NCBI GenBank assembly: GCA_016699465.1
Contig: CP064977.1
Coordinates: 745,116-809,115 of the forward strand
From: Candidatus Campbellbacteria bacterium
GTDB taxonomy: Bacteria; Patescibacteriota; Minisyncoccia; Phycocordibacterales; EsbW-18
Length of the DNA stretch: 64,000 nt
Direction of reading: 5' to 3'
Part shown: piece by piece, positions 1,110-35,351 of the stretch
Position numbering within the stretch: position 1 is the stretch's first letter
Layout: every line of letters starts with the position of its first letter
Translations under genes and position numbers: made by a program
The notes under the pieces: model-generated
What the model saw: the letters and a program-made list of their open reading frames with translations, nothing else
The model's database searches: none
Told to the model about the DNA's origin: nothing

Positions 1110-1118
1110 TGGGAGATA

Positions 1119-1147
1119 TTGACTTTTAATTTTTTGGGATGTATAAT
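1119..1147 (+). promoter_or_regulatory. Sigma70-type promoter: TTGACT, 17-nt spacer, TATAAT
   Basis: Perfect -35 TTGACT (1119-1124) and -10 TATAAT (1142-1147) with a 17-nt spacer, 30 nt upstream of the ATG at 1177. Confidence 0.55.
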
Positions 1148-1176
1148 ACAAAAACCTATATAATAATCAAATACAT

Positions 1177-10422: not shown

Positions 10423-13400
10423 ATGAATCATTTTAAAAATACAAAATATCTTATTTTTAAAATAGTAGTTCTTTCCCTGTCTATATGTGCGTATACTGGT
10501 GCTGCATATGCATCAGAAATGTACACGTCAGGTGATACTGTTGTTGTTGGAGAATTTATTTACAACGATGACTATACTCCAACAACTGACGATTGTACGG
10601 TTACTATTTACCCACCAACGGGAAGTGTTACTCCGTTGGTAGAGGCAACAACAACAGATAATTCTACGGGGTGGCATTATTACGAATTCACTGCTCCGGC
10701 AACAGAGGGGAAATACCCTGCTTTTATAACATGCGGAACGCTTGCAGGGGGTGATTTACTAAAGGTTGATAAGACGTTTGTTGTTTCTAATACTGTAGTT
10801 ACGGCGTCATCTTCTCTTGGTGCAGCAATCGGTGCAAGTACTGCAAGTACAGCTAATTCTATTGCCACCGCATCCACCTCACTCGCTGCAGCAATTAGCG
10901 CAGGCACCGCAAGTACCGCCGATACTATTGCCACTGCATCCTCATCACTTGGTGCAGTTATTAATGCAAACACAAATACCCAGACAGCGGGTGTTATTTC
11001 TTCTGTAAATGCAAACACCGATATTCAAATAGCTACAGCATCTTCGTCAATCGTTTCGCAAGTTCTTTCGTCTCTGGCTCTTATTCCGGCAAATGTGTGG
11101 TCGTATTCAACGAGAACATTGTCTTCAATGGGCACACTTGTTGCTGATGTGTGGAGTTATGGTACGCGACGACTTACGGACGCTGTTCTTGATAGTGGGA
11201 CTCTTGCTTTGTTATCTGATATGGAAACCGCCTCCTCATCACTCGGCAGTGCCGTGGCTGCAGGAACCGCAGGTGTGAACGCACACACAGACAGTCAACT
11301 TGCCTCAACAATCACCACCATCAACGCACACACGGATGCAACTGTCCTCACCGCAACCACCTCACTCCTTGCCACACTCCCAACCGCAGTCTGGTCAAGT
11401 GCAACACGATCACTCACCACCTTCGGAACACTCGCAGCTGATGTGTGGACGAACGGTACACGCACCCTCACGTCAGGAGTCCTCACCGCAGGTGACGTCT
11501 GGTCATACGCAACACGTCGTCTCTCTGATGGCACACTCGATGCCGGAGCACTCGCTACCGTCTCTGATGTGGGTACCGCATCCACCTCACTCGCCGCAGC
11601 AATTAGCGCAGGCACTGCAAGTACCGCCGGCACCATCTCGACCGCTTCCTCATCACTCGGCAGTGCCGTGGCTGCAGGAACCGCAGGTGTGAACGCACAC
11701 ACAGACAGTCAACTTGCCTCAACAATCACCACCATCAACGCACACACGGATGCAACTGTCCTCACCGCAACCACCTCACTCCTTGCCACACTCCCAACCG
11801 CAGTCTGGTCAAGTGCAACACGATCACTCACCACCTTCGGAACACTCGCAGCTGATGTGTGGACGAACGGTACACGCACCCTCACGTCAGGAGTCCTCAC
11901 CGCAGGTGACGTCTGGTCATACGCAACACGTCGTCTCTCTGATGGCACACTCGATGCCGGAGCACTCGCTACCGTCTCTGATGTGGGTACCGCATCCACC
12001 TCACTCGCCGCAGCAATTAGCGCAGGCACTGCAAGTACCGCCGGCACCATCTCGACCGCTTCCTCATCACTCGGCAGTGCCGTGGCTGCAGGAACCGCAG
12101 GTGTGAACGCACACACAGACAGTCAACTTGCCTCAACAATCACCACCATCAACGCACACACGGATGCAACTGTCCTCACCGCAACCACCTCACTCCTTGC
12201 CACACTCCCAACCGCAGTCTGGTCAAGTGCAACACGATCACTCACCACCTTCGGAACACTCGCAGCTGATGTGTGGACGAACGGTACACGCACCCTCACG
12301 TCAGGAGTCCTCACCGCAGGTGACGTCTGGTCATACGCAACACGTCGTCTCTCTGATGGCACACTCGATGCCGGAGCACTCGCTACCGTCTCTGATGTGG
12401 GTACCGCATCCACCTCACTCGCCGCAGCAATTAGCGCAGGCACTGCAAGTACCGCCGGCACCATCTCGACCGCTTCCTCATCACTCGGCAGTGCCGTGGC
12501 TGCAGGAACCGCAGGTGTGAACGCACACACAGACAGTCAACTTGCCTCAACAATCACCACCATCAACGCACACACGGATGCAACTGTCCTCACCGCAACC
12601 ACCTCACTCCTTGCCACACTCCCAACAGCAGTCTGGTCAAGTGCAACACGATCACTCACCACCTTCGGAACACTCGCAGCTGATGTGTGGACGAACGGTA
12701 CACGCACCCTCACGTCAGGAGTCCTCACCGCAGGTGACGTCTGGTCATACGCAACACGTCGTCTCTCTGATGGCACACTCGATGCCGGAGCACTCGCTAC
12801 CGTCTCTGATGTGGGTACCGCATCCACCTCACTCGCCGCAGCAATTAGCGCAGGCACTGCAAGTACCGCCGGCACCATCTCGACCGCTTCCTCATCACTC
12901 GGCAGTGCCGTGGCTGCAGGAACCGCAGGTGTGAACGCACACACAGACAGTCAACTTGCCTCAACAATCACCACCATCAACGCACACACGGATGCAACTG
13001 TCCTCACCGCAACCACCTCACTCCTTGCCACACTCCCAACCGCAGTCTGGTCAAGTGCAACACGATCACTCACCACCTTCGGAACACTCGCAGCTGATGT
13101 GTGGACGAACGGTACACGCACCCTCACGTCAGGAGTCCTCACCGCAGGTGACGTCTGGTCATACGCAACACGTCGTCTCTCTGATGGCACACTCGATGCC
13201 GGAGCACTCGCTACCGTCTCTGATGTGGGTACCGCATCCACCTCACTCGCCGCAGCAATTAGCGCAGGCACTGCAAGTACCGCCGGCACCATCTCGACCG
13301 CTTCCTCATCACTCGGCAGTGCCGTGGCTGCAGGAACCGCAGGTGTGAACGCACACACAGACAGTCAACTTGCCTCAACAATCACCACCATCAACGCACA

Positions 13401-14457
13401 CACGGATGCAACTGTCCTCACCGCAACCACCTCACTCCTTGCCACACTCCCAACCGCAGTCTGGTCAAGTGCAACACGATCACTCACCACCTTCGGAACA
13501 CTCGCAGCTGATGTGTGGAATGCAGCAACACGAACTCTTACATCACTCACACTCTCGTCTCAGTCTCCGTGGACTGTGACAACATCGGATTTCGGGTCGG
13601 TTGTTGCTGGAGAAAATTACCTTGCTACGGTCACAACTATCTACAACGGAACACTTACAGACTCACAGAATGTACCAACGGTTACTATTTATGATCCAAG
13701 TAGAAATGTGGTTGTTAACAGCGCTGTGATGACTCGAGTAAGTGTTGGAACATATACGTATGTATACACCACTGCAGGAAATGCTGCAGCTGGAACATGG
13801 GAAAGTGTATTTTCAGCGACTGTAGAGACAGGAAAGACTTTACCAGGTAATGACTATTGGACAGTGGTGACGACACCTGCTCAGGTGGTGATAAATAGTA
13901 TGTCAGATGTAAGTACGCCGCTTGTTGGTGCAAATGTCACCATTACAAACGAAGGTTTGAGTGGAAATGAATACCAGTACGAGTGGTGTGTGGTTTCTTC
14001 TGTGGGTAATCCTTGTGGTGGTGGTGATGATATCTTTCACGCAACAGCTGCAAAATACATTAATGCAGGAGAAGATTTTAATACGACACTAACTGCAACT
14101 GTTCCGGCGGCAGGTAATTACTATTTCAAAGTGATTGTATACTTTGGTACTGAAAGTTCTGGTGCGTCACGTTCGTTTACCGCGACTTCCTCGGGCAACA
14201 CTGGTGGAGGAGGTGGCGGAGGAGGTGGAGGTGGGGGCGGAAGTGATACCACAACGTCGGTAACTCCTCTAGGTTCTTGTAAGCGTAGAGCGGACTTTAA
14301 CTGTGATACGAAGGTCAATTCGATAGATTTTTCGATACTCCTATATTTCTGGAAATCGATGTATCCATTTAAAAACCAAAATGTTGATATAAATAAAGAT
14401 ACAAGGGTAGATTCAGTTGATTTTTCAATTTTATTATACGAATGGGATAAAAAATAA
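10423..14457 (+). CDS. Giant secreted repeat protein with a C-terminal type-I-like dockerin (two DxNxDxxVNxxD segments)
   Basis: 1344 aa. Signal peptide (IVVLSLSICAYTGAAYA). N- and C-terminal Ig-like flanks (TVTIYPPTG / TVTIYDPS). A central array of 138-aa repeats with VW..TR.L sub-motifs. Gly13 linker. C-terminal DFNCDTKVNSIDFSILLYFW ... DINKDTRVDSVDFSILLYEW. Confidence 0.75.
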   Translation: MNHFKNTKYLIFKIVVLSLSICAYTGAAYASEMYTSGDTVVVGEFIYNDDYTPTTDDCTVTIYPPTGSVTPLVEATTTDNSTGWHYYEFTAPATEGKYPAFITCGTLAGGDLLKVDKTFVVSNTVVTASSSLGAAIGASTASTANSIATASTSLAAAISAGTASTADTIATASSSLGAVINANTNTQTAGVISSVNANTDIQIATASSSIVSQVLSSLALIPANVWSYSTRTLSSMGTLVADVWSYGTRRLTDAVLDSGTLALLSDMETASSSLGSAVAAGTAGVNAHTDSQLASTITTINAHTDATVLTATTSLLATLPTAVWSSATRSLTTFGTLAADVWTNGTRTLTSGVLTAGDVWSYATRRLSDGTLDAGALATVSDVGTASTSLAAAISAGTASTAGTISTASSSLGSAVAAGTAGVNAHTDSQLASTITTINAHTDATVLTATTSLLATLPTAVWSSATRSLTTFGTLAADVWTNGTRTLTSGVLTAGDVWSYATRRLSDGTLDAGALATVSDVGTASTSLAAAISAGTASTAGTISTASSSLGSAVAAGTAGVNAHTDSQLASTITTINAHTDATVLTATTSLLATLPTAVWSSATRSLTTFGTLAADVWTNGTRTLTSGVLTAGDVWSYATRRLSDGTLDAGALATVSDVGTASTSLAAAISAGTASTAGTISTASSSLGSAVAAGTAGVNAHTDSQLASTITTINAHTDATVLTATTSLLATLPTAVWSSATRSLTTFGTLAADVWTNGTRTLTSGVLTAGDVWSYATRRLSDGTLDAGALATVSDVGTASTSLAAAISAGTASTAGTISTASSSLGSAVAAGTAGVNAHTDSQLASTITTINAHTDATVLTATTSLLATLPTAVWSSATRSLTTFGTLAADVWTNGTRTLTSGVLTAGDVWSYATRRLSDGTLDAGALATVSDVGTASTSLAAAISAGTASTAGTISTASSSLGSAVAAGTAGVNAHTDSQLASTITTINAHTDATVLTATTSLLATLPTAVWSSATRSLTTFGTLAADVWNAATRTLTSLTLSSQSPWTVTTSDFGSVVAGENYLATVTTIYNGTLTDSQNVPTVTIYDPSRNVVVNSAVMTRVSVGTYTYVYTTAGNAAAGTWESVFSATVETGKTLPGNDYWTVVTTPAQVVINSMSDVSTPLVGANVTITNEGLSGNEYQYEWCVVSSVGNPCGGGDDIFHATAAKYINAGEDFNTTLTATVPAAGNYYFKVIVYFGTESSGASRSFTATSSGNTGGGGGGGGGGGGGSDTTTSVTPLGSCKRRADFNCDTKVNSIDFSILLYFWKSMYPFKNQNVDINKDTRVDSVDFSILLYEWDKK
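11230..13520. repeat. Tandem 414-bp coding repeat: 5 full copies plus a ~220-bp partial, with a divergent copy upstream at ~10800-11230
   Basis: Antisense and sense artefact ORFs recur with an exact 414-nt period. The copies are virtually identical; one C/A difference is visible near 12618. Confidence 0.85.
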
Positions 14458-17132: not shown

Positions 17133-17369
17133 ATGAGTATTTCAGGATTGTTGTTACAAAAACTTGCACGTAAACAGCTCGAAGGGTTGCCTCCTGAACA
17201 GCGAGATGTGTTTATGCGTATGCTCGAAAAAAATCCACAACTTTTTGTGACTATTGCACAAGAAGTCCAAGTTAAAATGACAAGCGGTATGGAGCAAATG
17301 GCGGCCGCCCAAACAGTTTTTGCATCACACGAAACTGAGTTGCGGGCTCTAATGCAGGATTCAAAATAA
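17133..17369 (+). CDS. Small hypothetical protein
   Basis: 78-aa ORF, helical, no recognisable motif. Confidence 0.35.
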   Translation: MSISGLLLQKLARKQLEGLPPEQRDVFMRMLEKNPQLFVTIAQEVQVKMTSGMEQMAAAQTVFASHETELRALMQDSK

Positions 17370-17450: not shown

Positions 17451-17479
17451 TTGTTTGAGAGTGAATAAATTCGTATAAT
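17451..17479 (+). promoter_or_regulatory. Candidate sigma70 promoter (TTGTTT, 17 nt, TATAAT), possibly giving a leaderless transcript starting at ATG 17487
   Basis: -35 at 17451-56 and a perfect -10 at 17474-79. The -10 overlaps the tabulated ATG at 17478. A second in-frame ATG lies at 17487, ~8 nt after the -10. Confidence 0.35.
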
Positions 17480-18752
17480 GAGTTATATGGCCAAATCGAC
17501 GAAATTTATAGATATTTCTCCCCACAGAAGTATTATGACGAAAATTAGTCAGACGGGATATTCCATTCAGGAAGCTCTGGCTGAACTTATTGATAATTCA
17601 ATTGATGCACGAGTGCCGGAAAAGAAGTTGGTTGTTAAGGTAGACATAACAAATGATGAAATAATAATAAGTGATAACGGAAAGGGAATGACCGAGGAGC
17701 AAGCGGCAAAGGCTATTAGGCTCGGTTTTTCTGAGAAAAAGAGTCAGCTCGGTGAATTTGGTTTGGGGCTTAAAACATCCACATCGTTTTTAGGCAAGGG
17801 TTTTATGTTAATAACCACACCAGAGGACTCAAGTGAGGAATATATATTGGAGTACGACGAAGATCACTGGCTTGAGCATGGTGATTGGAATAAGTACCCC
17901 TTTATTATAAATAACGAAATTGATCCAGAAAAAAGCGGTACCACAGTAATAATAAAAAGATTGAAGGTAAACTTCTCAGAAAAACTTCTTAATGGTATTA
18001 AAGACGAGTTTGGTTTGAGGTTTGGACCCTTTATAAAAAATGAAGAATTGGAACTAATCTTCAATCAAGAAGTTTGTCAACCATTTGTTCCTGTGATACT
18101 GGATAATAAAAAAAATGAATTCACTTTTGAATTTGAAGGTGGTACGGCCAAGGGATGGTGGGGATACCAGTTGGTTGGGTTAAACAAAAGTTACTACGGA
18201 TTCCATACGTATCGTAGGGGTAGGTTGGTCACGACGTATGACAAAATGGGCCTAACTCCAAACCAGGATATAAAACAAATAATAGGAGATTTACATATAG
18301 AAGGAATACCCATAACACATGACAAAAAAGGTTGGCTCAAGTCCTCGGCTCAATTCAAAGATCTCGAGAGTAAGATGAGAGAATATTTTAAACCTTTTGA
18401 GAAAAAGCCAAAAAGAATATTGAGTGGTTATCCGGTCTCGGCAGGTAGGGTTAGAGGGACTGTTAAACTTATTAAAACTACCGCTCAACATATAGATATC
18501 CAGAAGGTCCTGGAGAACGTAAAACGAGGTGACATAATTGTCACAGAGATGACGCGTCCACAGTATTTGTTGGCCATCAGGCGTGCCGCGGGTATTATCA
18601 CCGATCTTGGTGGAAATCTTTGTCATGCGGCGATATTGTCAAGGGAGTTCAATATTCCATGTGTGGTTGGTACTCAGAATGCCACGTCACTTTTAGTGGA
18701 GGGTAAGACGGTTATATTAGATGGTAATGAGGGCTATATTTATGAAGATTGA
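17478..18752 (+). CDS. Fusion protein: N-terminal GHKL/Bergerat-fold ATPase domain plus C-terminal PEP-utilising-enzyme mobile (swivel His) domain
   Basis: N-terminus ALAELIDNSIDA...ISDNGKGM...GEFGLGLK (HATPase_c-type N, G1 and G2 boxes). C-terminus GTVKLI...GDIIVTEMTRPQYLLAIRRAAGIITDLGGNLCHAAILSREFNIPCVVGT matches the PEP-utilizers swivel domain with the conserved His. Confidence 0.7.
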   Translation: MSYMAKSTKFIDISPHRSIMTKISQTGYSIQEALAELIDNSIDARVPEKKLVVKVDITNDEIIISDNGKGMTEEQAAKAIRLGFSEKKSQLGEFGLGLKTSTSFLGKGFMLITTPEDSSEEYILEYDEDHWLEHGDWNKYPFIINNEIDPEKSGTTVIIKRLKVNFSEKLLNGIKDEFGLRFGPFIKNEELELIFNQEVCQPFVPVILDNKKNEFTFEFEGGTAKGWWGYQLVGLNKSYYGFHTYRRGRLVTTYDKMGLTPNQDIKQIIGDLHIEGIPITHDKKGWLKSSAQFKDLESKMREYFKPFEKKPKRILSGYPVSAGRVRGTVKLIKTTAQHIDIQKVLENVKRGDIIVTEMTRPQYLLAIRRAAGIITDLGGNLCHAAILSREFNIPCVVGTQNATSLLVEGKTVILDGNEGYIYED

Positions 18753-19905
18753 TGAACATATTTTAAAATTTCCAAAATCTTTGCCAAACGATGAACAGCA
18801 GTTCATGACCTATTATCCGTATAAGTTCCCAAAGGTTATAGAATATTATGAACAAAAATCTAAAGAGCTTTGTGATAAGCCCGAAGAATACGCTCAATTT
18901 GTTCAAAAAGAATTTTTAGAACTAAGAGACGCCGTAAACAAAGTAAACGAGTTATTCCAAAATGGTGACAAAACAGACCTGAAATTTTTGATTGAGATAG
19001 ATCAAAAGTTTAATAAAATATTTTGTTTTAAATTTTGGATTATAAATTATGTATTTGCGGATGGCCCGATTCATGAGTTTTATGTTGATCAGCTTAGGGC
19101 ATTTGCTCGTAAGATTGTCGATGTAACCGATGATATAGAAGAATACGAACAGAAGATAATACGGTTTCAAAGGGATTTGCTTCAAACAGATTATGCTGAT
19201 ATTTATCTAGCACAAGCATTACACGGAGTACAACTAATTAAATACCTTGATGGGGACGCACAATCCAAAGAAATACTAGATAAGGTTATTCCACTCATAG
19301 ATAAACACGACGAACATGACGCGGAGCAAATTCGCGAAATGTGGAAGCCTGTTGTAGAAAGAATACTAGATGATTCAGACGAGTATTTTAAACCTCTAAA
19401 ACAGGTCAATCTCGATTCCTGGGATATTCTGGGCCAGCCACCTCTTCTGGTTCCGGTAAACCAGGTACGTATGCGTAAGAATGAATTTCCCTTGTATAGC
19501 TTTTTGAATCATGTGGTGGAATTTCGAAACCAAAACGAAGTTTTGGAAGAGCGGTTCAAAAATATGAAGGCTACCATAGAAGAGATATTTGTAGAAGCCA
19601 AGAGTCGCTTGAGCGAAGAAGGATATTCTGATTTCAAGCTTTCCTACGAGATGGCAAAAAATTTCTCTAAATCAAAGGATTTGATGGGGAACGTTGATCC
19701 AATATTGATACCGGTTTGGGAAAGGGATGTTCATGCTAGAATTTATGAAATTTTGTCTAAAGAACACACCGTTCGCTACCCCTCAGTTAATCATGCTTCA
19801 GTTTTCGGTAGTTTTATTTGGTATCTACCAGACGATCTAAAATCTAAAGTTATGTCGGTTGATGATACTTTTTTTGATGCAGATGAATTATCTACTCATA
19901 AATAA
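18721..19905 (+). CDS. Hypothetical protein (394 aa)
   Basis: Long ORF overlapping the upstream stop. The start could be ATG 18721 or 18742. No recognisable motif. Confidence 0.5.
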   Translation: MVMRAIFMKIDEHILKFPKSLPNDEQQFMTYYPYKFPKVIEYYEQKSKELCDKPEEYAQFVQKEFLELRDAVNKVNELFQNGDKTDLKFLIEIDQKFNKIFCFKFWIINYVFADGPIHEFYVDQLRAFARKIVDVTDDIEEYEQKIIRFQRDLLQTDYADIYLAQALHGVQLIKYLDGDAQSKEILDKVIPLIDKHDEHDAEQIREMWKPVVERILDDSDEYFKPLKQVNLDSWDILGQPPLLVPVNQVRMRKNEFPLYSFLNHVVEFRNQNEVLEERFKNMKATIEEIFVEAKSRLSEEGYSDFKLSYEMAKNFSKSKDLMGNVDPILIPVWERDVHARIYEILSKEHTVRYPSVNHASVFGSFIWYLPDDLKSKVMSVDDTFFDADELSTHK

Positions 19906-19910
19906 AAAAT

Positions 19911-20750
19911 ATGAGTGAAAAATTACCCCCAATGTCAGACGGGCGAATGGAGATACATATCCAACGTCATGATGTTCATAAAATTGGTCATTTAACCCCT
20001 GAGGGTCGAGAACATGCGAGAACTATCGCCAGAGAAAAGGTTGGAAAATATTTAGATAAGGAAAAAGATACAAATTTTTTAGTCATTGCTTCAAACCAAG
20101 TGTTTGATGATAGAGAACCCGATTTTGGGGGGCAACGAGCCGTCGAGACGGCCGATGAAATAGTTTCTGCTATACGCGATGAATTGAAGGCGAGAGGCTT
20201 GCCTGATGACCATCTATTCGGAGGGGATACGCTTCCTATTGCCATGAGTCCTGATTTGCAAGAAGCAGGGATTTTTTCGGGTGATTTTATGAAATACCTT
20301 AAGGAAAAATATGACCCAGAAAATTTAAAGGGCTTACAGTATATTTGGAATATATATTATCAAGACGTTGAATCGGAGATAAGAAAAAAAATGAGTGCAG
20401 AGGGGCCAAGGGATCTCGCAAGAAGGATGGACTATGTTTTTAAAGTTGCGGAAATGGTTGGTGCTTCATTCCATAAAACTGATGACAGGAAGAGTCAGCC
20501 TTTAGTTGTTTGGATGGTTGGACACGGTGGGGGGCTCGATGCTTTCTTGCATCATTATGCCGGTGTTCCCGTCGACGATGTTGGCTTTTCACCGAGTGAT
20601 GGTTTTACGATAAGGGTGAATTCAGACGGCGTTGTCGTGGCTGATGTAAAAGGTAAAGAATATCCACTCCATCAAGATGATGAATTAAGTCTCCCTAAAC
20701 ACCCAGTGATAGCTGATGAAACTATACGAGTATCTAAGTGGAATGCTTAA
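19911..20750 (+). CDS. Histidine phosphatase superfamily (PGAM-like) protein
   Basis: N-terminal RHD..H...LTPEGREHA resembles the RHG...LT..G..QA catalytic core. C-terminal VVWMVGHGGGL matches the second catalytic His motif. Confidence 0.5.
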   Translation: MSEKLPPMSDGRMEIHIQRHDVHKIGHLTPEGREHARTIAREKVGKYLDKEKDTNFLVIASNQVFDDREPDFGGQRAVETADEIVSAIRDELKARGLPDDHLFGGDTLPIAMSPDLQEAGIFSGDFMKYLKEKYDPENLKGLQYIWNIYYQDVESEIRKKMSAEGPRDLARRMDYVFKVAEMVGASFHKTDDRKSQPLVVWMVGHGGGLDAFLHHYAGVPVDDVGFSPSDGFTIRVNSDGVVVADVKGKEYPLHQDDELSLPKHPVIADETIRVSKWNA

Positions 20751-20799
20751 TGCTGCCAAAATAAAAATTGGATATTGGAAAGGGTAAAATATAAGTTTT

Positions 20800-21747
20800 G
20801 TGTCTTTTACTTTAAATTTTGAGGAACTTAATAAAAACGACAGTGCGATTGCCGGAGGTAAGGGAGCATCTCTTGGTGAGATGACGCTGGTGGGTATTCC
20901 GGTTCCACCAGGGTTTGTTGTACTTTCCACTACATTTGATGAATTTACAAAGGAGGCAGATTTGATACAAGAAATTGATGCCGCCATTGATGGTGTCGAC
21001 CACGAGGAGATGCATATTGTGGAAAATGCCTCAGAAAAGATACAGGCACTTATCAAAAATGCAACAATACCAGAAAGAATAGCAGATGAAATAAAGAATC
21101 AATTTAAAAAATTAGACACTGAATATGTGGCAGTGCGTTCATCGGCCACGGCAGAAGACGGAACAGACAATGCTTGGGCAGGACAACTAGACTCATATCT
21201 CAACACCAAAGAAGAAAATCTTTTGGAAAAAGTTCAGGAATGTTGGGCGTCTCTTTTTACTCCACGAGCCATATTCTATAGATTTGAAAAGGGTTTGCAC
21301 ACAACTAAAATCTCAGTAGCGGTAGTAATTCAGAAAATGGTTAATTCTGAAATCTCAGGCATCGCCTTCTCTGTGCATCCAGTAACAGAAGATAGAAATC
21401 AAATGATTATTGAAGCAGGATTCGGCTTAGGTGAGGCAATAGTATCAGGTTCAATTACGCCTGATTCATATGTGGTAGAGAAAGAACCAAGAAGTATTAT
21501 AGATATTAATGTTTCCACTCAACTGAGTGGTTTGTACCGTGTTGTGGCTGGAGGTAGTGAATGGATTGATATACCAGAACCCAAGGCATCATCTCAAGTA
21601 CTAAACGAGGCTCAGATTCTAGAATTGTCTGATCTCATCATGAGAATTGAGAATCATTATGGTTTTCCATGTGATATTGAGTGGGCTTATGAAAATGGAA
21701 AATTTTATATCGTACAAAGTAGGCCAATTACTACTTTGAAAAAATAA
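20800..21747 (+). CDS. Stand-alone PEP synthase / pyruvate phosphate dikinase N-terminal ATP-grasp (PPDK_N) domain protein
   Basis: GGKGASLGEM...VAVRSSATAEDGTDNAWAGQLDSYLN...ISVAVVIQKMVNSEISGIAFSVHP...IEAGFGLGEAIVSG is the classic PPDK_N/rifampin-phosphotransferase ATP-binding domain. GTG start at 20800; no in-frame ATG nearby. Confidence 0.75.
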   Translation: MSFTLNFEELNKNDSAIAGGKGASLGEMTLVGIPVPPGFVVLSTTFDEFTKEADLIQEIDAAIDGVDHEEMHIVENASEKIQALIKNATIPERIADEIKNQFKKLDTEYVAVRSSATAEDGTDNAWAGQLDSYLNTKEENLLEKVQECWASLFTPRAIFYRFEKGLHTTKISVAVVIQKMVNSEISGIAFSVHPVTEDRNQMIIEAGFGLGEAIVSGSITPDSYVVEKEPRSIIDINVSTQLSGLYRVVAGGSEWIDIPEPKASSQVLNEAQILELSDLIMRIENHYGFPCDIEWAYENGKFYIVQSRPITTLKK

Positions 21748-22973: not shown

Positions 22974-22998
22974 AACCCCATTAAAAGTGGGGTTTTTT
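22974..22998 (+). terminator. Rho-independent terminator after ychF
   Basis: AACCCCA-TTAAAAG-TGGGGTT hairpin followed by TTTTTT. Confidence 0.65.
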
Positions 22999-23053
22999 GC
23001 TGCCACAAACTCGTCTAAAAAGGTCGAAATTTTATCAGCCAAATATTGCGACT

Positions 23054-23419
23054 ATGAAACCTACTCAAACATTCATAGAGGCATCGCTTAAGGATACTTT
23101 TCACTCTAGCTTCCACGGATATCTCCATATCTCCTATCAGGAGCTTGTGGATAAGTTGGGGATACCACATGACCGCACTCAGGATGGCGAATGGAAGTGT
23201 CTAGATGAAAAAGTGCGTGCCGAATGGGCTTTCACATCGACTAACTCGAAACGCCCGTGCGTGCTGACCATCTACGATTACAAAGAATATCGTCGACCGA
23301 TCCACGAAGTGAATCAGTGGCATGTTGGTCTCAAAGGAGATGCCCATCTTGTAGATATCTTGTTCAAAGAAAAAGGACTCTATCCAGATGCGTTTGAGAT
23401 TCAGAAGAAATATAGGTAA
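23054..23419 (+). CDS. Hypothetical phage protein (paralog A)
   Basis: The tabulated ORF starts with TTG inside the ychF terminator T-tract. The in-frame ATG at 23054 gives MKPTQTF..., matching the start of paralog B. Shared core G.W...D.KVRAEWAF.......P.VLTIYDYK. Confidence 0.5.
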   Translation: MKPTQTFIEASLKDTFHSSFHGYLHISYQELVDKLGIPHDRTQDGEWKCLDEKVRAEWAFTSTNSKRPCVLTIYDYKEYRRPIHEVNQWHVGLKGDAHLVDILFKEKGLYPDAFEIQKKYR

Positions 23420-23458
23420 TCAAACAGGTCGAGATTTTATTAACCAGTCAAATTGATT

Positions 23459-23875
23459 ATGAAGACACAAACTGAGTTCGTGAAAGCCAAGCCGAAAGAT
23501 CTAAACGGATCCGGTGGGAGGGGAACCATGACTGCCTCATATGACACTCTGGTCCAAGCATTCGGAGAACCACATAATCGCGCCAAAGAAGGTCCCTGGC
23601 ATTCCCGTGACGGAAAAGTCAGGGCTGAATGGGCATTCAAGGCTGTCGGTACCGAAAAGCCTCTGGTCCTGACCATATACGACTACAAAAGCAAAAAGAC
23701 GGTGGAAGAAGTAACGGATTGGAGCATTGGACTTAATGGGGACATTCAAATAGCAGCATCCTTCCTTGCCGCTCGGCTCGGACAGTACTGCTTCAAGACT
23801 CACAGGATAGTCCTTGTTGAGAAGCGACTAAGCTCCGGCAGCACGATCTTGATGAGTGCCGAAAGATCAATCTAA
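23459..23875 (+). CDS. Hypothetical phage protein (paralog B)
   Basis: ATG at 23459 (MKTQTEF...). ~40% identical to paralog A across the core. Confidence 0.5.
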   Translation: MKTQTEFVKAKPKDLNGSGGRGTMTASYDTLVQAFGEPHNRAKEGPWHSRDGKVRAEWAFKAVGTEKPLVLTIYDYKSKKTVEEVTDWSIGLNGDIQIAASFLAARLGQYCFKTHRIVLVEKRLSSGSTILMSAERSI

Positions 23876-24534: not shown

Positions 24535-25716
24535 ATGCAAACACAAGAACGAAGCGTGTCCCCGACCGTTGAAGAATCATTCTTCACAAAGATCGGGAAT
24601 ACGAAACCTTACTTCAAGGCGGCATTTGAAGGAGAGCCGGGAACCGGCAAAAGTTGGACTGCCGCATTAGTAGCGATTGGTCTTCACAAGAAGATCAACA
24701 GCAAGAAGCCGATTGTGCTTATCGATACCGAGAAAGCGTCGAAATTCTTGGTCCCGCTGTTCAAAGAACACGGAATCGAAGCGATGGTGCGCGAAACGCA
24801 TTCACTCGCTGACTTAGTCAAAGCAATGAAGCTCTGCTCGGATGGGTATGCCGACATCATGGTGATCGACAGCATTACTCACATCTGGATGGACTTCCAA
24901 GAGGCATACAAGCGAAAGCTGAATCGACAAGTGTTCCAGATTCAAGACTGGATGTCGATCAAAAGCGAGTGGAATAAATACTTCTCAATCCCACTCGTGC
25001 AATCGCCCCTGCACATTCTTGCAACCGGCCGCGTGTCGGATCGCATGGAGCAGGAAGTGGATGAGGATGGCCGAAAAGAGTTCACCAAGACTGGAGTGAA
25101 GATGCAAGCGGAAAAGAACGCTGCATACGAATTCGATGTCTTGGTCCTAATGGAACGCCATGAGCTCATCCAACGCAAGAAGCGTGAAGTCTGGCGACAG
25201 TCTGTGGTCCTCAAAGGCCGAGGCAATCTCCTCGATGGTGCGGTGTTCAAAAATCCGACCTACGAAGATTTTGCTCCTGCGGTTGAAGCGATCATTAAAG
25301 ACCCGATAGCTGCGAGGTTCAGCCACGCCGAGCAGGATGCGGGAGAACTGATCAAAACCGAACAGGACAAGCGCCAGTGGATTCAGGAGAAGAAGCGATG
25401 GTTGGAAGAAATCGAGGGTTATCTCGTATCGATCTGGCCAAGTTCAAGTGCCGCGGAAAAGAAGAATAAAACCGATGCACTCGAGTACGCTTTCAACACT
25501 CGCAGCTGGTCCGCTATCGAGATGATGACGCCGGAGGTTCTAGAGGATGGCTATGCGCGAGTCAGGGAATTTGCCCAGCAAAAAATTGCTGAAGCAAAAG
25601 GAGAACTTGCTCCGGAGCTAACTCCAGGAGAGAAGTTTGACAAAGACCTGCGAGATTCAAAGGAATGCAATCCCAAAAAATCCGCAGCCGAGAAGTCTAA
25701 GAAAAGTGACAAGTAA
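24535..25716 (+). CDS. Phage AAA_24-family (Sak4-like) RecA-fold ATPase
   Basis: Walker A GEPGTGKSW. LIDTEKA... Walker B MVIDSI. 393 aa. Position in the replication/recombination module. Confidence 0.6.
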   Translation: MQTQERSVSPTVEESFFTKIGNTKPYFKAAFEGEPGTGKSWTAALVAIGLHKKINSKKPIVLIDTEKASKFLVPLFKEHGIEAMVRETHSLADLVKAMKLCSDGYADIMVIDSITHIWMDFQEAYKRKLNRQVFQIQDWMSIKSEWNKYFSIPLVQSPLHILATGRVSDRMEQEVDEDGRKEFTKTGVKMQAEKNAAYEFDVLVLMERHELIQRKKREVWRQSVVLKGRGNLLDGAVFKNPTYEDFAPAVEAIIKDPIAARFSHAEQDAGELIKTEQDKRQWIQEKKRWLEEIEGYLVSIWPSSSAAEKKNKTDALEYAFNTRSWSAIEMMTPEVLEDGYARVREFAQQKIAEAKGELAPELTPGEKFDKDLRDSKECNPKKSAAEKSKKSDK

Positions 25717-27256: not shown

Positions 27257-28540
27257 ATGGAATCTATCAAGATAAAACTGAGCAATCTGAGACGGGCCGA
27301 GTACAACCCCAGGATCATGCCAGACAGCGAAATGGCCGCGTTGAAGACGAGTATTAAGACCTTCGGCTTCGTTGAGTCAATCGTCGTCAATAGCCACGCC
27401 TGTGAGCGCTGTGGCGACCGTAAAGGCGTCCTGGTGGGCGGTCATCAGCGTACCGCGGCCGTTGAAACGATTGTTGAGGCGGGAGAGCAAATACAAGGCA
27501 TTGTTGTCGATAAAGACGGAATTCACATCCCCGCCAACATCGTGGACTTGCATATCGAACAGGAAAAACTTCTGAACCTTGCGCTCAACAAGATCAAAGG
27601 AAAGTGGGATGAGAAAAAATTGTCGGAAATAATCGTGGAGCTCAAAGAATCTCCATTCATTCCGGCCTCAGGGTTTAGAGACGACGAGATCAGCAGGATT
27701 CTCGATCAAACCTTAGAGGATGAGGAGCAGGATGATGACGAAGGGGATTCGGCTAATAAAGAGCCACGGTCCAAACTTGGCGAAATATACGAGCTCGGTC
27801 CGCACAGACTCATCTGCGGCGATTCGACCGATCCCGAAACTTACAAAAGAATTCTGGGCGAAAACAAAGCCGACATGATATTCACTGATCCGCCTTACAA
27901 CGTGAACTATAAAAGTCGAGGAGACAAGCTGAAGGGAGAAGGAAACGAGTCTATCAAAAACGACAACATGGATGACGATTCGTTCCGGATATTTATCGAC
28001 AAGTGCTTTTATTCCATGATCATCCATACGAAGGAAGGTGCGTCGTTTTATATCTGTTCCGGCTGGAGCTCATATCCGCAATTCTTGGAGAGTATGCTGA
28101 AAAACGGTTTTCAACATTCGGGAGTGATCATCTGGGTCAAGAACGTGCCAAGTATGGGATGGAACGATTATCGCTATAAGCACGAGTGGATCGCTAAAGC
28201 CAAAAAGCCCGATCCAAAAACTGCTCAGGGGATCATCTACGGATGGAAGAATGGCACTCATAAATTCTACGGTGAGAATGAATTCGATGTGTGGGAGATG
28301 CCGAGAAAAGCTGTCTCTCGTTATCTTCATCCGACAGAAAAGCCGGATTGGCTTGCAATGCGAGCGCTCAGGAACTCCACTCAACGCAGCGATATTGTTC
28401 TCGATCCGTTCGGCGGCTCCGGTAGCACCATGGCCGCGGCGGAAAAGGTCGGCCGACGGGCATACATGATCGAGCTTGATCCGAAATTCTGCGATGTAAT
28501 CAGGGATCGCTGGGAAAGAATAAATAAAGCAAAGAAATGA
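27257..28540 (+). CDS. ParB-like nuclease domain fused to a beta-class N6-adenine/N4-cytosine DNA methyltransferase
   Basis: N-terminus ...VLVGGHQRTAA (ParB N-domain). Motif IV IFTDPPYNV followed by motif I DPFGGSGSTMAAA. Confidence 0.8.
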   Translation: MESIKIKLSNLRRAEYNPRIMPDSEMAALKTSIKTFGFVESIVVNSHACERCGDRKGVLVGGHQRTAAVETIVEAGEQIQGIVVDKDGIHIPANIVDLHIEQEKLLNLALNKIKGKWDEKKLSEIIVELKESPFIPASGFRDDEISRILDQTLEDEEQDDDEGDSANKEPRSKLGEIYELGPHRLICGDSTDPETYKRILGENKADMIFTDPPYNVNYKSRGDKLKGEGNESIKNDNMDDDSFRIFIDKCFYSMIIHTKEGASFYICSGWSSYPQFLESMLKNGFQHSGVIIWVKNVPSMGWNDYRYKHEWIAKAKKPDPKTAQGIIYGWKNGTHKFYGENEFDVWEMPRKAVSRYLHPTEKPDWLAMRALRNSTQRSDIVLDPFGGSGSTMAAAEKVGRRAYMIELDPKFCDVIRDRWERINKAKK

Positions 28541-29607
28541 AATATTTCAGTTTATTCTCCGGCATCGGGGGATTTGAATTGGGTATCGCCAAAGCCTATG
28601 TGGAAATCATTAACAGAAACAAGATCGGAGCAATCAAGAAGGATTCGAAAAAGAATGATGCAAAAAGGCAGAGATTGGAGTCCAAGAAGGGGAAAGGAAC
28701 TCATGATAAGAAAAGACAATCTCTCAAACTGCCTGACGGGAACGATGACAAAAGAGCATTTATTAATTCTGATTCCAAACGGATATATGAAGATATTGTT
28801 GGAAAACTTTTACAGGGCAAGGTCCCCCAGACTATATGGAAAGACTTCGCCGACACTCCGATCGGATCGATCGGGCCTGCTTGTGTTGGATACTCCGAAA
28901 TCGACAAATATGCGATCAAAATATATGAAAAATACTTCAATCACAAAAATTACGGAGACGTCAGAAAAATCGACGCTCGAGCGTTACCCGACTTCGACCT
29001 ACTCGTTGGAGGTTTCCCTTGCCAGTCTTTCTCTGTTGCCGGAAAAAGAAAAGGATTTAAAGACACCAGGGGAACATTGTTCTTTGAAATTGCTCGCATT
29101 GTTGCTGCCAAAAAACCACGGCTTTTATTCCTTGAAAACGTTAAAGGGCTTCTCTCTCACCAGCAAGGGCGTACCTTTGGAACTATCCTCGCCACATTGG
29201 ATGAGCTTGGGTATGACATCCAATGGGAAGTGCTTAACAGCAAGGATCATGGGGTCCCGCAGAATCGGGAGCGAGTGTTTATTGTCGGACATCTTAGAGG
29301 CACGTCCAGGCCGAAAGTATTTCCTGTCAAAACAAATGACGAAAGGGATTGTGAACAGTATGTTCCGGAGCAGGAAACCGCTCGAGGTGTCAGGAATATG
29401 TCAGACCTTAAAAGTTGGTGGCGACACACCATGCGTATTAGGAAACTCACGCCGGTAGAATGCGAACGATTGCAGGGGTTTCCCGACGGGTGGACTGAAG
29501 GCGTGAGCGACACTCAGAGATACAAAACCCTGGGCAATGCTGTAACCGTGAATGCGGTCCAAGCGGTCTCAAAAAAGCTCTTAAATGCAAGGGCTTGTCA
29601 AAAATAA
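28537..29607 (+). CDS. DNA (cytosine-5)-methyltransferase with an ~88-aa Lys-rich insertion after motif I
   Basis: Motif I LFSGIGGFELG. Then a basic insert. Then ACVGYSEIDKYA, PCQSFSVAG (IV), ENVKGL (VI), TLGNAV (X). Confidence 0.85.
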   Translation: MKYFSLFSGIGGFELGIAKAYVEIINRNKIGAIKKDSKKNDAKRQRLESKKGKGTHDKKRQSLKLPDGNDDKRAFINSDSKRIYEDIVGKLLQGKVPQTIWKDFADTPIGSIGPACVGYSEIDKYAIKIYEKYFNHKNYGDVRKIDARALPDFDLLVGGFPCQSFSVAGKRKGFKDTRGTLFFEIARIVAAKKPRLLFLENVKGLLSHQQGRTFGTILATLDELGYDIQWEVLNSKDHGVPQNRERVFIVGHLRGTSRPKVFPVKTNDERDCEQYVPEQETARGVRNMSDLKSWWRHTMRIRKLTPVECERLQGFPDGWTEGVSDTQRYKTLGNAVTVNAVQAVSKKLLNARACQK

Positions 29608-29623
29608 CCCCGAATAACCCTGA

Positions 29624-30232
29624 ATGAAAAAGCTCCCATTACACGAGGAAAAAATAAAGAGAGCGATAAGGGATGCAATAGTGATCGATCCCTTAATTTC
29701 CGTTGCGAGACTGCAGGATGCTCTCTTTGAGAAGGGCTTTAAAACCCCGAACAATACACCTCTCGATTGGGACTATGTCGCTCGGTTAAGAAAAAAGATT
29801 CATCGACAAGCTATAGAAAACGTCAATCGTCAGGAAGTGGGGCAAAGAATTGCCGAACTTAAAGAAAAAAACAGGATTGTCTTCGATCGTCTGGTCCGAA
29901 TAGCCTATTACACTGAAGACATGAAAAAAGAAGGCATGCAGCCGCCAAGCTACAAGGATGTGATCGCGGCTTTAACGGCAATGGTTAGACTGGATCACAT
30001 GATATTCAACGCCGAACTTGATGCTGGAATATTTGAACGCCACATTGGAACGCTTGAAGTCGAAAAGAGGTATAAACCTCTTCCTCCGGAGTTGAAGGCG
30101 CAAATGATGCTCGCATTTAAAAATTGGGGAATCATCCCTCAGGATCAGAACGAACAAATTAAAGACCATGGAGCAACAGAACATCAATCAAACTCAAACA
30201 CTTCCGCCGCCATCGTGGTGGCAGGACAATAG
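29624..30232 (+). CDS. Putative terminase small subunit
   Basis: 202 aa. Helical N-terminus. Immediately upstream of, and overlapping, the large terminase. Call is by position only. Confidence 0.35.
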   Translation: MKKLPLHEEKIKRAIRDAIVIDPLISVARLQDALFEKGFKTPNNTPLDWDYVARLRKKIHRQAIENVNRQEVGQRIAELKEKNRIVFDRLVRIAYYTEDMKKEGMQPPSYKDVIAALTAMVRLDHMIFNAELDAGIFERHIGTLEVEKRYKPLPPELKAQMMLAFKNWGIIPQDQNEQIKDHGATEHQSNSNTSAAIVVAGQ

Positions 30233-31631
30233 TTTTCTGGATGACTATGATTCGCGCCGAAAACTGGCTCGAACGCTCAAAGGTTTCTGTTTGGTTTATC
30301 TGCCACACTATCTCAGTATTCCGCCGGCCGACTTTCATCACGAGCTCCTTGATACACTCGGCAATCCGAACGAAAGAATGATAGAGGTCCTGGGATTTCG
30401 AGGTAGCGCCAAAAGCACGTACGGATCACTGGCGCTTCCTTTGTGGGCCGCACTAGAATATCCCGACCTGTACCCATTCATTATTCCCACAGCTGACACG
30501 GGACTTCAAGCCGCGATAAATATCGCTAACATTAAAACAGAACTGGAAAGCAATGAACTTATAAAGCAGGACTATGGAGTGATCAGGGGAGAATTCGTGG
30601 AGGATTGGACGCTCGAAAGCGAAGAAGAATGGCAGGCGAAGAATATGCTCCTCTCGACAGGCGTTCGAATACTCGCGCGCTCAAGAGGTCAAAAGATCCG
30701 AGGGTTGAGACATAAACAGCACAGGCCAAAACTCATAATCGTTGACGACCCCGAGGATCTTGAATGGGTCCGTTTGAAGGATAACAGGGACAAAACAGAA
30801 CGATGGCTGAGGGGGGAAGTTATTCCCGCAATTGATGAGACAACCGGAAGACTTGTTGTGATCGGTAACCAACTGCATACCGATGCGCTGATGGCACGTC
30901 TCAAAAGGGATAAAGTATTCAAGCACTTGGAATACCCGCTAGTTAGAGCAAATGGAGTATGTTCATGGAAAGCGAAATATCCGAATGCCGAATCATTGGA
31001 TCTCCAGCGAGACAAAGTTGGGGTAAATGCATACCTGCGTGAGTATCTTCTGAAAGTGGTACCTGAAGAAGGAGCTGATATCAAAGAAGAATGGATCCAC
31101 TACTATGATGCTGAACCGCCCGAAATGCAAACGGGACTAAGTGGAACGGGCATAGACTTGGCGATAAGCAAGAAAGAAACAGCCGACTATACCTCGATGG
31201 TGTCCGGAACATCATTCGTCAAAGAAGGTATTCCAAAAATTTACATTAAACCAAATCCAATCAATGCAAGACTTTCCTTCCATGAGACGATCGAAACAAC
31301 CAGAGCGATGTCCGTGGCGAATCCCTTCTCGATATTCTTTGTCGAAAGCGTGGCATACCAGAAAGCGGCGGTAGAAGAAATGGAGAGGGCTCTATTGCCG
31401 GTTATTGCCATGACGGCAGGGTCCGATAAACGAGCTAGGCTACGTGCTGTTGCCATTTATATTCAGAACGGCACGATAGTCTTTCCAAGAAAGGGATGTG
31501 AAGACCTACTGATTCAGCTTCTCGGCTTTGGCGTTGAGGAACATGATGACCTGGTCGACGCTCTCGTATATTTAATTCTCGGCCTCGTCCAGCAGGGAAT
31601 GCAAAATCCTGAAGTAATAGGACTAATTTAA
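30168..31631 (+). CDS. Terminase large subunit
   Basis: Deviant Walker A GFRGSAKST. Walker B IIVDDPED. C-terminal nuclease-like region. 487 aa. ATG 30168 overlaps the upstream gene by 65 nt. Confidence 0.7.
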   Translation: MEQQNINQTQTLPPPSWWQDNSFLDDYDSRRKLARTLKGFCLVYLPHYLSIPPADFHHELLDTLGNPNERMIEVLGFRGSAKSTYGSLALPLWAALEYPDLYPFIIPTADTGLQAAINIANIKTELESNELIKQDYGVIRGEFVEDWTLESEEEWQAKNMLLSTGVRILARSRGQKIRGLRHKQHRPKLIIVDDPEDLEWVRLKDNRDKTERWLRGEVIPAIDETTGRLVVIGNQLHTDALMARLKRDKVFKHLEYPLVRANGVCSWKAKYPNAESLDLQRDKVGVNAYLREYLLKVVPEEGADIKEEWIHYYDAEPPEMQTGLSGTGIDLAISKKETADYTSMVSGTSFVKEGIPKIYIKPNPINARLSFHETIETTRAMSVANPFSIFFVESVAYQKAAVEEMERALLPVIAMTAGSDKRARLRAVAIYIQNGTIVFPRKGCEDLLIQLLGFGVEEHDDLVDALVYLILGLVQQGMQNPEVIGLI

Positions 31632-34222: not shown

Positions 34223-35350
34223 ATGGATAAAAAAATGAAAAAAGAAGCAACGTTTCAAAAAATAAATAACGAAATCCTTGAGAAGGTCTCATTGGCATTT
34301 GCCACAAAAGAATTTAAAGATGCGATAGAAAAGACCAAGGCTGCAACCGATTCGGGAACATTCGAAGTCATAATTTCGACCGCCGATGAAGATCGCCAGG
34401 GCGAAGTTATTGATCAGAGTGGCTGGGATTTCACCAATTATAGAAACAATCCCGTGGTTCTATGGGGCCACAACTACTACGACCTACCGATTGGCGTAAC
34501 TGACGAGATTTATACAAACGACAAAGGCCAGACTATCGCCAAAGGACGATTCGCTCCGGAAGAAGCCAATCCTTTTGCTCAGCAAGTTCGCCGACTCTAC
34601 GACGCCAAGATTGTAAAAACAACATCTGTAGGGTTCATCGCTCGGGAAATGGAAGGGAACGTTATAACGAAAGCTGAGCTCCTGGAATTCTCCTTTGTTC
34701 CGGTCCCCGCAAACCCGATGGCACTTTCCTTAGCAAAGGAATTAAACCTCAATACTGTCGAACTCATCACAAAAGGACTCTTTGTAAAGGCTGAACCGCA
34801 GGAAGGCGATTCATGCACGACCGATGACTGCAAGGAAGGGACGATGCTCCCAGATGGTTCAGGTGCGCTCGTGTGCACGATAAAGGAGGACACAAAAGCT
34901 GAAGCTCCTGTTGAAGTGAAAGCGGAAGAACCGGAGCTTGTACAGAAAATCGGTGCAGAGCTTTCCGCTATACAGTCAGAGACGGATGCGAGCATCATCG
35001 CTCACTCCAAAGAGATCATAAGTCTGATCACTGAGGAATCTGAAGATGAGAGCGATGAAGCTAAGGCAGAAAAGACCGCACGAGTGCGACAACTGATAAG
35101 TCGCACAAAAATCAAAATAGCCATCAATGGCATGAAAGCCACGATCGGCGCCTTAGAGGAGCTCCTCAAGGGTGCCGAAGGGAAGGAAGATCTCGATGGA
35201 GATACCCTAAAGAAAAGGTCGAATGCCGCAGGGTCAGAGGTCATTGAAGCTCTCAAGGCTTTTAATGCTAACCGCCAGGTCTTGCGAATGATTAATAACA
35301 TTACGAGTGATGCATTGCGAAAAATCAATGATACTCGTGAAAAAAAATAG
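34223..35350 (+). CDS. HK97-family prohead protease with a C-terminal scaffold-like coiled coil
   Basis: FEVIISTADEDRQGEVIDQSGWDF...NPVVLWGHNYYDLPIGV matches the prohead protease (S78/U35) core. Charged helical C-terminal half. Confidence 0.65.
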   Translation: MDKKMKKEATFQKINNEILEKVSLAFATKEFKDAIEKTKAATDSGTFEVIISTADEDRQGEVIDQSGWDFTNYRNNPVVLWGHNYYDLPIGVTDEIYTNDKGQTIAKGRFAPEEANPFAQQVRRLYDAKIVKTTSVGFIAREMEGNVITKAELLEFSFVPVPANPMALSLAKELNLNTVELITKGLFVKAEPQEGDSCTTDDCKEGTMLPDGSGALVCTIKEDTKAEAPVEVKAEEPELVQKIGAELSAIQSETDASIIAHSKEIISLITEESEDESDEAKAEKTARVRQLISRTKIKIAINGMKATIGALEELLKGAEGKEDLDGDTLKKRSNAAGSEVIEALKAFNANRQVLRMINNITSDALRKINDTREKK

Positions 35351-35351
35351 T

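Follow-up and report, generated by a model that had tools for sequence, protein, structure and literature searches.

The stretch of DNA considered here, referred to as the window, comprises 64,000 nucleotides (nt) of a Candidatus Campbellbacteria genome (contig CP064977.1, positions 745,116 to 809,115 of the forward strand). The element of interest is a cassette of four co-oriented genes at window positions 17478–21747, designated A, B, C and D in their order along the plus strand. The corresponding open reading frames (ORFs) span 17478–18752 (424 amino acids, aa), 18721–19905 (394 aa), 19911–20750 (279 aa) and 20800–21747 (315 aa, with a GTG start). A first-pass annotation of this locus, made from the sequence, had proposed an unusual split phosphotransfer system in which a GHKL ATPase fused to a phosphohistidine swivel domain cooperates with a separate ATP-grasp protein and a phosphatase. 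The features of the cassette are as follows.

17474–17479, plus strand: TATAAT hexamer, candidate −10 element, read directly from the sequence; the consensus scan did not report the site
17487–18752, plus strand: gene A, encoding the fusion of a MORC-type GHKL+S5 ATPase with a phosphohistidine swivel domain; the ATG at 17487 gives 421 aa, the ORF being open from 17478
17559–17942, plus strand: GHKL (Bergerat-fold) ATPase domain of A, aa 28–155; Pfam HATPase_c_3, E = 6e-20
18180–18386, plus strand: S5-fold transducer domain of A, aa 235–303; Pfam Morc6_S5, 28.2 bits, above the cut-off of 26.2; motifs RRGRLVT..DK and ITHDKK
18522–18734, plus strand: PEP-utilizers swivel domain of A, aa 349–419; Pfam PF00391, E = 3e-25
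18742–19905, plus strand: gene B, encoding an acidic, all-alpha protein of 387 aa from a small family without annotation; ATG start at 18742
19911–20750, plus strand: gene C, predicted histidine-phosphatase-superfamily (PGAM-like) protein; R19-H20 at 19965–19970 and H205 at 20523–20525
20800–21747, plus strand: gene D, stand-alone PPDK_N ATP-grasp (nucleotide-binding) protein of 315 aa; Pfam PPDK_N, E = 3e-96

The likely starts of A and B are the ATG codons at 17487 and 18742, respectively, because the database versions of the two proteins have 421 (P0001) and 387 (P0121) residues. The start of B overlaps the end of A, through its stop codon, by 11 nt; B and C are separated by 5 nt, and C and D by 49 nt. 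All of the encoded proteins are acidic (isoelectric points of 4.6–5.6 for the GHKL-S5 part of A, B, C and D), which argues against DNA as a ligand and favours a small molecule or a protein. The perfect TATAAT ends 7 nt 5' of the ATG at 17487 and is preceded, across a 17-nt spacer, by a weak candidate −35 element (TTGTTT at 17451–17456, matching the consensus at three of six positions). No Shine-Dalgarno sequence is visible upstream of this ATG. A leaderless transcript starting there is a plausible candidate; promoter-like matches in the region occur at chance level (15 found, against 15.3 expected).

The N-terminal part of A contains the GHKL motifs ELIDNSIDA (aa 36–44), DNGKGM (aa 66–71) and GEFGLGLKT (aa 92–100), and its nearest structures in the PDB are those of MORC3, MORC2 and MORC4. 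For the C-terminal part the nearest structures are phosphoenolpyruvate (PEP) synthase and rifampin phosphotransferase (RPH), and the catalytic histidine corresponds to His383 (codon 18624–18626) in the sequence GGNLCHAAI. The two Pfam matches thus bear out the GHKL–swivel fusion described in the first-pass annotation, and the motifs quoted there are present. NCBIfam models for PEP synthase, RPH and PigC match the swivel segment only and score far under their full-length cut-offs. A has several hundred homologs, the best 120 of which are full length and 54–83% identical, and the combination of GHKL, S5 and swivel domains recurs in nearly all of those listed, a few being truncated. When conservation was counted over 116 full-length homologs, the GHKL motifs (ELiDN.iDA, D.g.GM, GEFGlGlKT and GT), the S5 motifs (RRGRLvT..DK and ItHDKK) and the swivel motif (GG.LcHAAI) were all at least 80–98% conserved. 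Because these motifs are so strongly conserved, the GHKL ATPase of A is very probably active and the swivel His383 very probably functional.

The partner that would charge such a histidine is encoded by D. PPDK_N is the sole Pfam domain of this protein, in agreement with the earlier description of a stand-alone 315-aa ATP-grasp protein, and in NCBIfam only the N-terminal ~315–340 positions of the PEP synthase and RPH models are matched. Matches in the PDB include PEP synthase (8a8e, E = 4e-75), RPH's ATP-grasp domain (5hv6, E = 1e-61) and a 387-aa chain (9goj). The PEP/pyruvate TIM-barrel (PEP-utilizers_C) is found in none of the four proteins, and the NCBIfam PEP synthase models give partial matches far under their cut-offs.

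The assignment of C as a PGAM-like phosphatase, also made in the first-pass annotation, holds for the fold and the catalytic residues but not for the profile that might have been expected to detect it: the Pfam His_Phos_1 hidden Markov model scores 14.2 bits, under its cut-off of 21.7. A search of the C sequence against the PDB gave no match, and the fold search alone succeeded. The AlphaFold2 model (predicted local distance difference test score of 86) has a PGAM-like alpha/beta fold with a helical cap insertion within its 279 aa, and its top Foldseek matches in the PDB are exclusively histidine-phosphatase/PGAM structures, with E-values down to 5e-7. R19, H20, R76 and H205 are invariant in 21 homologs, some homologs carry PF00300, and the Clostridium orthologs have canonical RHG and THGE motifs. 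On its modelled structure and motifs, rather than on the Pfam model, C is assigned to the histidine phosphatase superfamily.

Protein B has no family in Pfam, NCBIfam, PHROG or PADLOC, the last returning a single insignificant match to Cas11a (E = 0.031), and it has no fold relative in the PDB. Its family is tiny: a profile search of 1.84 billion representative proteins yielded 48 clusters. Fragments aside, the members are single-domain proteins of about 330–400 aa, with one of 468 aa that carries an internal insertion.

The four genes occur together in more than 80 independent loci. In the 23 loci reached via A, B always lies directly after A, often overlapping it, and the gene after B encodes a histidine-phosphatase-like protein in one of three forms, namely C, a longer form (C') or a divergent 'RRHS...THGE' form. 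Wherever there is enough downstream DNA, these 23 loci also carry D, with the exception of locus L023. A metagenome scan with the B profile returned 58 loci, of which 52 belong to the main branch of the family, the branch that includes the window. In this branch A is found upstream of B at 37 of the 38 loci that have sufficient upstream DNA, a C-type phosphatase gene at 34 of 35 and D at 19 of 20. Two trivial explanations considered in the first-pass annotation, a degraded PEP synthase and a chance juxtaposition of genes, are ruled out by this co-occurrence, by the intact ORFs and by the full-length homologs at 54–83% identity.

The cassette is spread over many classes of Patescibacteria and is also found in human-gut Clostridium metagenome-assembled genomes (MAGs). 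Homologs of A are annotated from Campbellbacteria, Buchananbacteria, Colwellbacteria, Vogelbacteria, Nomurabacteria, Kuenenbacteria, Levybacteria and Saccharimonadia, and occur in Clostridia as well, where human-gut 'Clostridium sp.' contigs contribute a cluster of 613 members. The Patescibacteria and Clostridium versions are 55–59% identical. Three cassette contigs (L011, L017 and L022), 55–76% identical to the Campbellbacteria gene, are labelled as 'Gammaproteobacteria' or 'Burkholderiaceae' MAGs; mis-binning of Patescibacteria contigs seems a more likely source of these labels than true proteobacterial hosts, though horizontal transfer is conceivable. The gut Clostridium contigs (L121–L136; for example L131, 10634–12198) almost always end 0.2–1.6 kb past D, and the DNA between D and the contig end holds no convincing ORFs. 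Since these contigs stop so soon after D, an assembly-breaking repeat probably lies just 3' of the Clostridium D, perhaps an rRNA operon.

Two kinds of variant locus illuminate how the components relate to one another. Extended loci add one to three proteins of 355–507 aa with a C-terminal PF00391 domain and no further Pfam domain, the N-terminal 'X' domains of these X+swivel proteins belonging to no Pfam family. The additions accompany the long phosphatase form C', and D is still single; loci with one D hold two to four swivel proteins, and the Kuenenbacteria locus has four swivel proteins and one ATP-grasp. Such multi-swivel regions lie at 6719–15485 of L005, 4934–10186 of L016 and 3909–6610 of L007. 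The presence of several swivel proteins beside one ATP-grasp gene suggests an ATP-driven phosphoryl hub, analogous to enzyme I of the phosphotransferase system (PTS). The Vogelbacteria locus L016 encodes the D homolog and an X+swivel protein as a single polypeptide of 769 aa with the canonical RPH-like architecture, and this fusion ties the stand-alone D to the RPH enzyme class; adjoining it is an 899-aa protein with two swivel domains.

The second variant is a distant branch in which the B homologs are 22–25% identical to main-branch B. Here the start of B is overlapped by the gene for a stand-alone swivel protein of 115–140 aa, which shares 48% identity with the A swivel, and D is 53% identical to its main-branch counterpart. 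A His_Phos_1 gene adjoins B on the opposite strand and scores above the Pfam threshold (32.5 and 25.4 bits), its product having no pairwise similarity to C. No GHKL gene is found anywhere on the distant-branch contigs. Because this branch lacks GHKL, the swivel, B, histidine phosphatase and ATP-grasp together make up the ancestral core, with the GHKL+S5 module joined to the N-terminus of the swivel later, in the main branch. B, and not GHKL, is then the constant partner of the swivel, and the GHKL module, which the first-pass annotation had gating or targeting the relay, does not belong to this core. In two of the six distant-branch loci a low-molecular-weight phosphatase (LMWPc) gene lies upstream of the stand-alone swivel gene (L147, 3640–4059, about 110 nt from it; L151, 2151–2639, directly adjacent), and these neighbours may hint at a connection with protein phosphorylation.

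Gene context gives no support to a role in defence. When 95 genes flanking 33 of the loci were surveyed with Pfam, no family recurred, and none of the genes was that of an integrase, a transposase or a defence protein. The flanks include genes for tRNA synthetases, ABC transporters, an M41-family protease and secretion, together with three extra His_Phos_1 genes, three NUDIX genes and two LMW phosphatase genes, the last both in the distant branch. No superfamily II helicase, restriction endonuclease or methylase partner was found in the more than 80 loci or among the 95 flanking genes, and no aromatic-catabolism genes in the cassette neighbourhoods surveyed. Phage or plasmid cargo was rejected, as B and full-length A are both missing from the INPHARED phages, the PLSDB plasmids and IMG/VR, and so was a known defence system, PADLOC and PHROGs giving domain-level matches only. 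With PADLOC-DB v2 these are partial, GHKL-level matches of A to MzaB, TmtA and a type II restriction enzyme model; C and D have no match. The association with anti-phage or antibiotic-inactivation systems raised in the first-pass annotation therefore found no positive support. The closest plasmid relatives of the GHKL+S5 part of A, at 24–28% identity, are 'ATP-binding proteins' encoded beside helicases or Dcm-Vsr-restriction endonuclease-HNH genes, and represent the restriction-linked MORC/paraMORC radiation (PMC2292703).

In the window itself, sortase, pilin and large surface-protein genes lie upstream of the cassette and ychF lies downstream. Two neighbours were considered as additional cassette genes and dropped: a 78-aa ORF at 17133–17369, which is not conserved in related loci, and ychF, which follows D in just one other locus. 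The sortase gene (411–1109) is followed by that of an 898-aa protein with SpaA-like prealbumin-fold pilin domains (1177–3873), so that positions 411–3873 constitute a sortase-assembled pilus locus of Gram-positive type in a Patescibacteria genome. Further along, the gene at 10423–14457 encodes a 1344-aa surface protein rich in Ala, Thr and Ser, with a dockerin-like domain at its C-terminus. Within it, positions 11227–13519 contain 5.5 copies of a 414-bp tandem repeat that are 99% identical, with a GC content of 0.55–0.59 compared with ~0.42 in the surroundings, which suggests a recently expanded and possibly phase-variable or length-variable adhesin.

A tailed prophage occupies approximately 22990–49000, beginning about 100 nt past ychF and 1.2 kb from the cassette, and is uncommon for a Campbellbacteria genome of roughly 0.8 Mb. 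Its genes encode a Sak4-like/AAA_24 protein (24535–25716), a ParB-methyltransferase fusion (27257–28540) and a second DNA methyltransferase (28537–29607), as well as the large terminase (30168–31631), portal (32007–34205), protease (34223–35350), major head (35307–36536) and tape measure (40690–42048) proteins. At its left edge there is no tRNA, and two adjacent paralogous ORFs of 140 aa (22997–23419 and 23453–23875), without a Pfam family, have stretches such as '...KVRAEWAF...LTIYDYK...' in common.

It is quite possible, and this is the reading we prefer, that the cassette constitutes a multi-subunit, ATP-driven phosphoryl shuttle of the dikinase type represented by PEP synthase, RPH and HpeHI. 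D would bind ATP and phosphorylate His383 on the mobile C-terminal swivel of A; by analogy with the family, it is the beta-phosphate that would be transferred, with release of AMP and inorganic phosphate (Pi). The swivel would then pass its phosphate on to B, the constant and translationally coupled partner of the swivel protein, which would form or bear the acceptor site, and C would take the phosphate off again, either from the product or directly from the phosphohistidine in a SixA-like reset. The GHKL+S5 part of A may provide an ATP-dependent dimerizing gate or scaffold that times the cycling of the swivel; a cycle that costs two phosphoanhydride bonds per turn, with a phosphatase built in, would call for such gating. 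One ATP-grasp would, in some genomes, serve up to four swivel-bearing proteins. The domain assignments, the intact catalytic motifs, the organization of the operon, the co-occurrence of its genes and the ancestral form without GHKL are established, whereas we infer which way the phosphate moves, that B provides its acceptor site and what C and the GHKL module do.

Several observations weigh against the phosphoryl shuttle. B is placed at the acceptor site by gene association alone, and it resembles the acceptor-binding domains of RPH-like or E-type proteins in neither sequence nor fold. One main-branch locus, L120, has no recognizable C. The GHKL module has strictly conserved ATPase motifs, which show that it does real work of a kind that the shuttle model leaves unspecified, and the nearest relatives of this module reside in restriction/helicase operons, hinting at a DNA-linked function. 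The pairing of kinase with phosphatase in an operon would, moreover, suit a futile or regulatory cycle just as well. A bolder proposal, which we regard as rather doubtful, is that a MORC-type GHKL ATPase wired to a phosphohistidine carrier represents a new class of phosphotransfer machine, in which an ATP-driven clamp would gate, or be gated by, the ATP-grasp-charged shuttle, with B as acceptor or effector and a PGAM-type reset. Such a machine might run an ATP-depleting futile cycle, as an infection- or stress-triggered switch in Patescibacteria and gut Clostridium, or it might act as an ATP-driven hub analogous to PTS enzyme I, with one ATP-grasp feeding several carriers.

Three other explanations appear less probable still. 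The cassette might serve anti-phage defence by abortive infection, the MORC module sensing foreign DNA or another infection cue and licensing a cycle of charging by D and stripping by C (net ATP to AMP + 2 Pi) that depletes ATP, or B might be a phospho-activated effector. This fits the co-occurrence of kinase and phosphatase in the same operon, which a futile cycle requires; the self-contained nature of the cassette, its differing position between genomes and its being common to Patescibacteria and Clostridium at 55–59% identity; the 1.2 kb that separate it from the prophage in the window; and the similarities of the GHKL+S5 part, both to plasmid proteins beside helicases or Dcm-Vsr-restriction endonuclease-HNH genes, as in the restriction-linked MORC/paraMORC radiation (PMC2292703), and, weakly, to the MzaB and TmtA GHKL proteins in PADLOC and NCBIfam. 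We nevertheless consider defence unlikely. No known defence family covers the system, and the cassette encodes no nuclease, TIR, membrane or other recognizable effector. The 95 flanking genes have ordinary housekeeping functions, none for defence or mobility recurs among them, and the proximity of a prophage is not seen at other loci. The GHKL-less distant branch demonstrates that the core functions with no MORC sensor, the GHKL-S5 part and B are acidic and thus poorly suited to binding DNA, and A is conserved like a housekeeping protein (54–83%), a degree of conservation not usual in arms-race genes.

The cassette might instead encode an RPH-like kinase of antibiotics or xenobiotics. The compound would be bound by B or in the GHKL pocket and phosphorylated by the swivel, and the additional X+swivel paralogs would broaden the range of substrates. 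As GHKL pockets are a well-known point of attack for natural products, among them the aminocoumarins and radicicol, the domain might act as a drug-binding decoy. The GHKL+S5 module does occupy the position of the substrate-binding domain of RPH and HpeH, N-terminal to the swivel; there are several acceptor modules per ATP-grasp; the proteins are acidic, unlike DNA-binding ones; and high conservation combined with a patchy cross-phylum distribution is reminiscent of resistance genes. A passive decoy would, however, have no need of the ATP-hydrolysis motifs of GHKL+S5, all of which are strictly conserved. The obligatory B and a phosphatase that undoes the modification are left unexplained, the cassette is not found on plasmids, and no resistance genes appear among the flanking genes surveyed, so that a drug kinase seems improbable. 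We would give an equally small chance to a regulatory phospho-switch, in which phosphate on His383 controls the dimerization or ATP turnover of the MORC ATPase and hence its partner B, with D as writer and C as eraser. Precedents exist in VadK, a PPDK-derived regulatory histidine autokinase without a PEP/pyruvate domain (PMC13400623), and in SixA, a histidine-phosphatase-superfamily eraser of the phosphohistidine on a phosphocarrier (PMC7948535), and GHKL and swivel are covalently fused throughout the main branch (37 of 38 loci), with ATPase motifs intact. Yet the distant branch retains the swivel, B, D and phosphatase with no GHKL to regulate, the D of extended loci serves HpeH-like X+swivel proteins that look catalytic rather than regulatory, and no input-sensing domain is visible.

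With respect to novelty, the split of a PEP-synthase-type kinase into separate subunits is already known, in HpeHI, CreHI and PpsAB. The part of the original proposal that treated the ATP-grasp/swivel split itself as unusual is thus superseded, and what stands is a real, conserved ATP-to-His system with a dedicated partner of the phosphatase family. Absent from the literature searched are the MORC–swivel fusion, the helical subunit B, the near-obligatory histidine phosphatase partner and the layout of one ATP-grasp with many carriers. No description of a MORC/GHKL module combined with a swivel or dikinase was found in the full-text literature searched, nor in PMC2292703, in keeping with the earlier remark that the architecture was unrecognized; nor was any report found there of a MORC module outside a DNA-transaction context. 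B represents a new protein family. The cassette is compact and strongly conserved, and it occurs both in abundant human-gut Clostridium and in genome-reduced Patescibacteria that keep few accessory genes. The acceptor, if found, would give a function to several hundred proteins annotated as 'ATP-binding protein' or 'PEP-utilizing enzyme', and its discovery could reveal a new regulatory or defence principle.

Among known systems, the prokaryotic MORC and paraMORC proteins (Iyer, Abhiman and Aravind 2008, PMC2292703) share with A the N-terminal GHKL domain with intact motifs and the S5 domain. The best PDB matches of A are to MORC3, MORC2 and MORC4, and its plasmid relatives lie in restriction/helicase operons. 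The cassette, in contrast, has no helicase, nuclease or methylase partner in the more than 80 loci, A is acidic, and its C-terminal extension is a phosphohistidine swivel, which is not listed in PMC2292703. A pairing of a histidine phosphatase with a phosphohistidine carrier system is found in SixA and NPr, where SixA strips the phosphohistidine from NPr by His-to-His transfer (PMC7948535). The first enzyme of that system likewise has a PEP-utilizers swivel, but the phosphate donor is PEP, whereas in the cassette it would be ATP via the ATP-grasp. SixA is a minimal form of the superfamily, and C, with 279 aa and a helical cap insertion, is much larger.

VadK (Rv1127c) is a PPDK-derived regulatory autokinase (PMC13400623), and resembles the cassette in the reuse of an ATP-grasp and swivel that have lost the PEP/pyruvate function. 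It differs in being a single mycobacterial polypeptide without GHKL, B or a phosphatase partner. In plant starch metabolism, glucan, water dikinase and the phosphoglucan phosphatases provide another case in which a PPDK-type dikinase and a dedicated phosphatase cycle one substrate. That system is eukaryotic and uses carbohydrate-binding modules and a dual-specificity rather than PGAM-type phosphatase, and no glucan-binding domain is seen in the cassette. RPH and PEP synthase/PPDK are built from the same two catalytic modules and presumably share the same ATP-to-His-to-acceptor chemistry, and the L016 homolog of D is still fused to an X+swivel protein as in RPH. These enzymes are, however, single polypeptides, and the cassette has neither PEP-utilizers_C nor a detectable domain like the rifampin-binding one.

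The closest parallels are HpeHI, CreHI and the phenylphosphate synthase PpsAB, two-component dikinases whose ATP-grasp forms a protein of its own (PMC12167813). D, like HpeI, has the PPDK_N ATP-grasp on its own polypeptide, while A, like the second subunit of these enzymes, bears a C-terminal swivel with the catalytic His in a motif of the GGxT(S/C)HAA type, has the Cys-His catalytic dipeptide described for HpeH (PMC12167813) and lacks the PEP/pyruvate TIM-barrel. The Hpe pathway also proceeds from phosphorylation through a chemical step to dephosphorylation (PMC12167813), so that there, too, removal of the phosphate follows an intermediate reaction. The cassette differs from these systems in that its swivel subunit carries a MORC-type GHKL+S5 module in place of a rifampin-binding-like acceptor domain, and in its hosts, Patescibacteria and gut Clostridium, where no aromatic-catabolism genes lie nearby. 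It also adds the obligatory helical B, which has no detectable relation to their domains, includes a histidine phosphatase gene and has one ATP-grasp for several swivel proteins. On the reading preferred here, the cassette would take the design of the two-component dikinases, themselves a recent recognition, to three or four components, with as many as four carriers charged by a single ATP-grasp.

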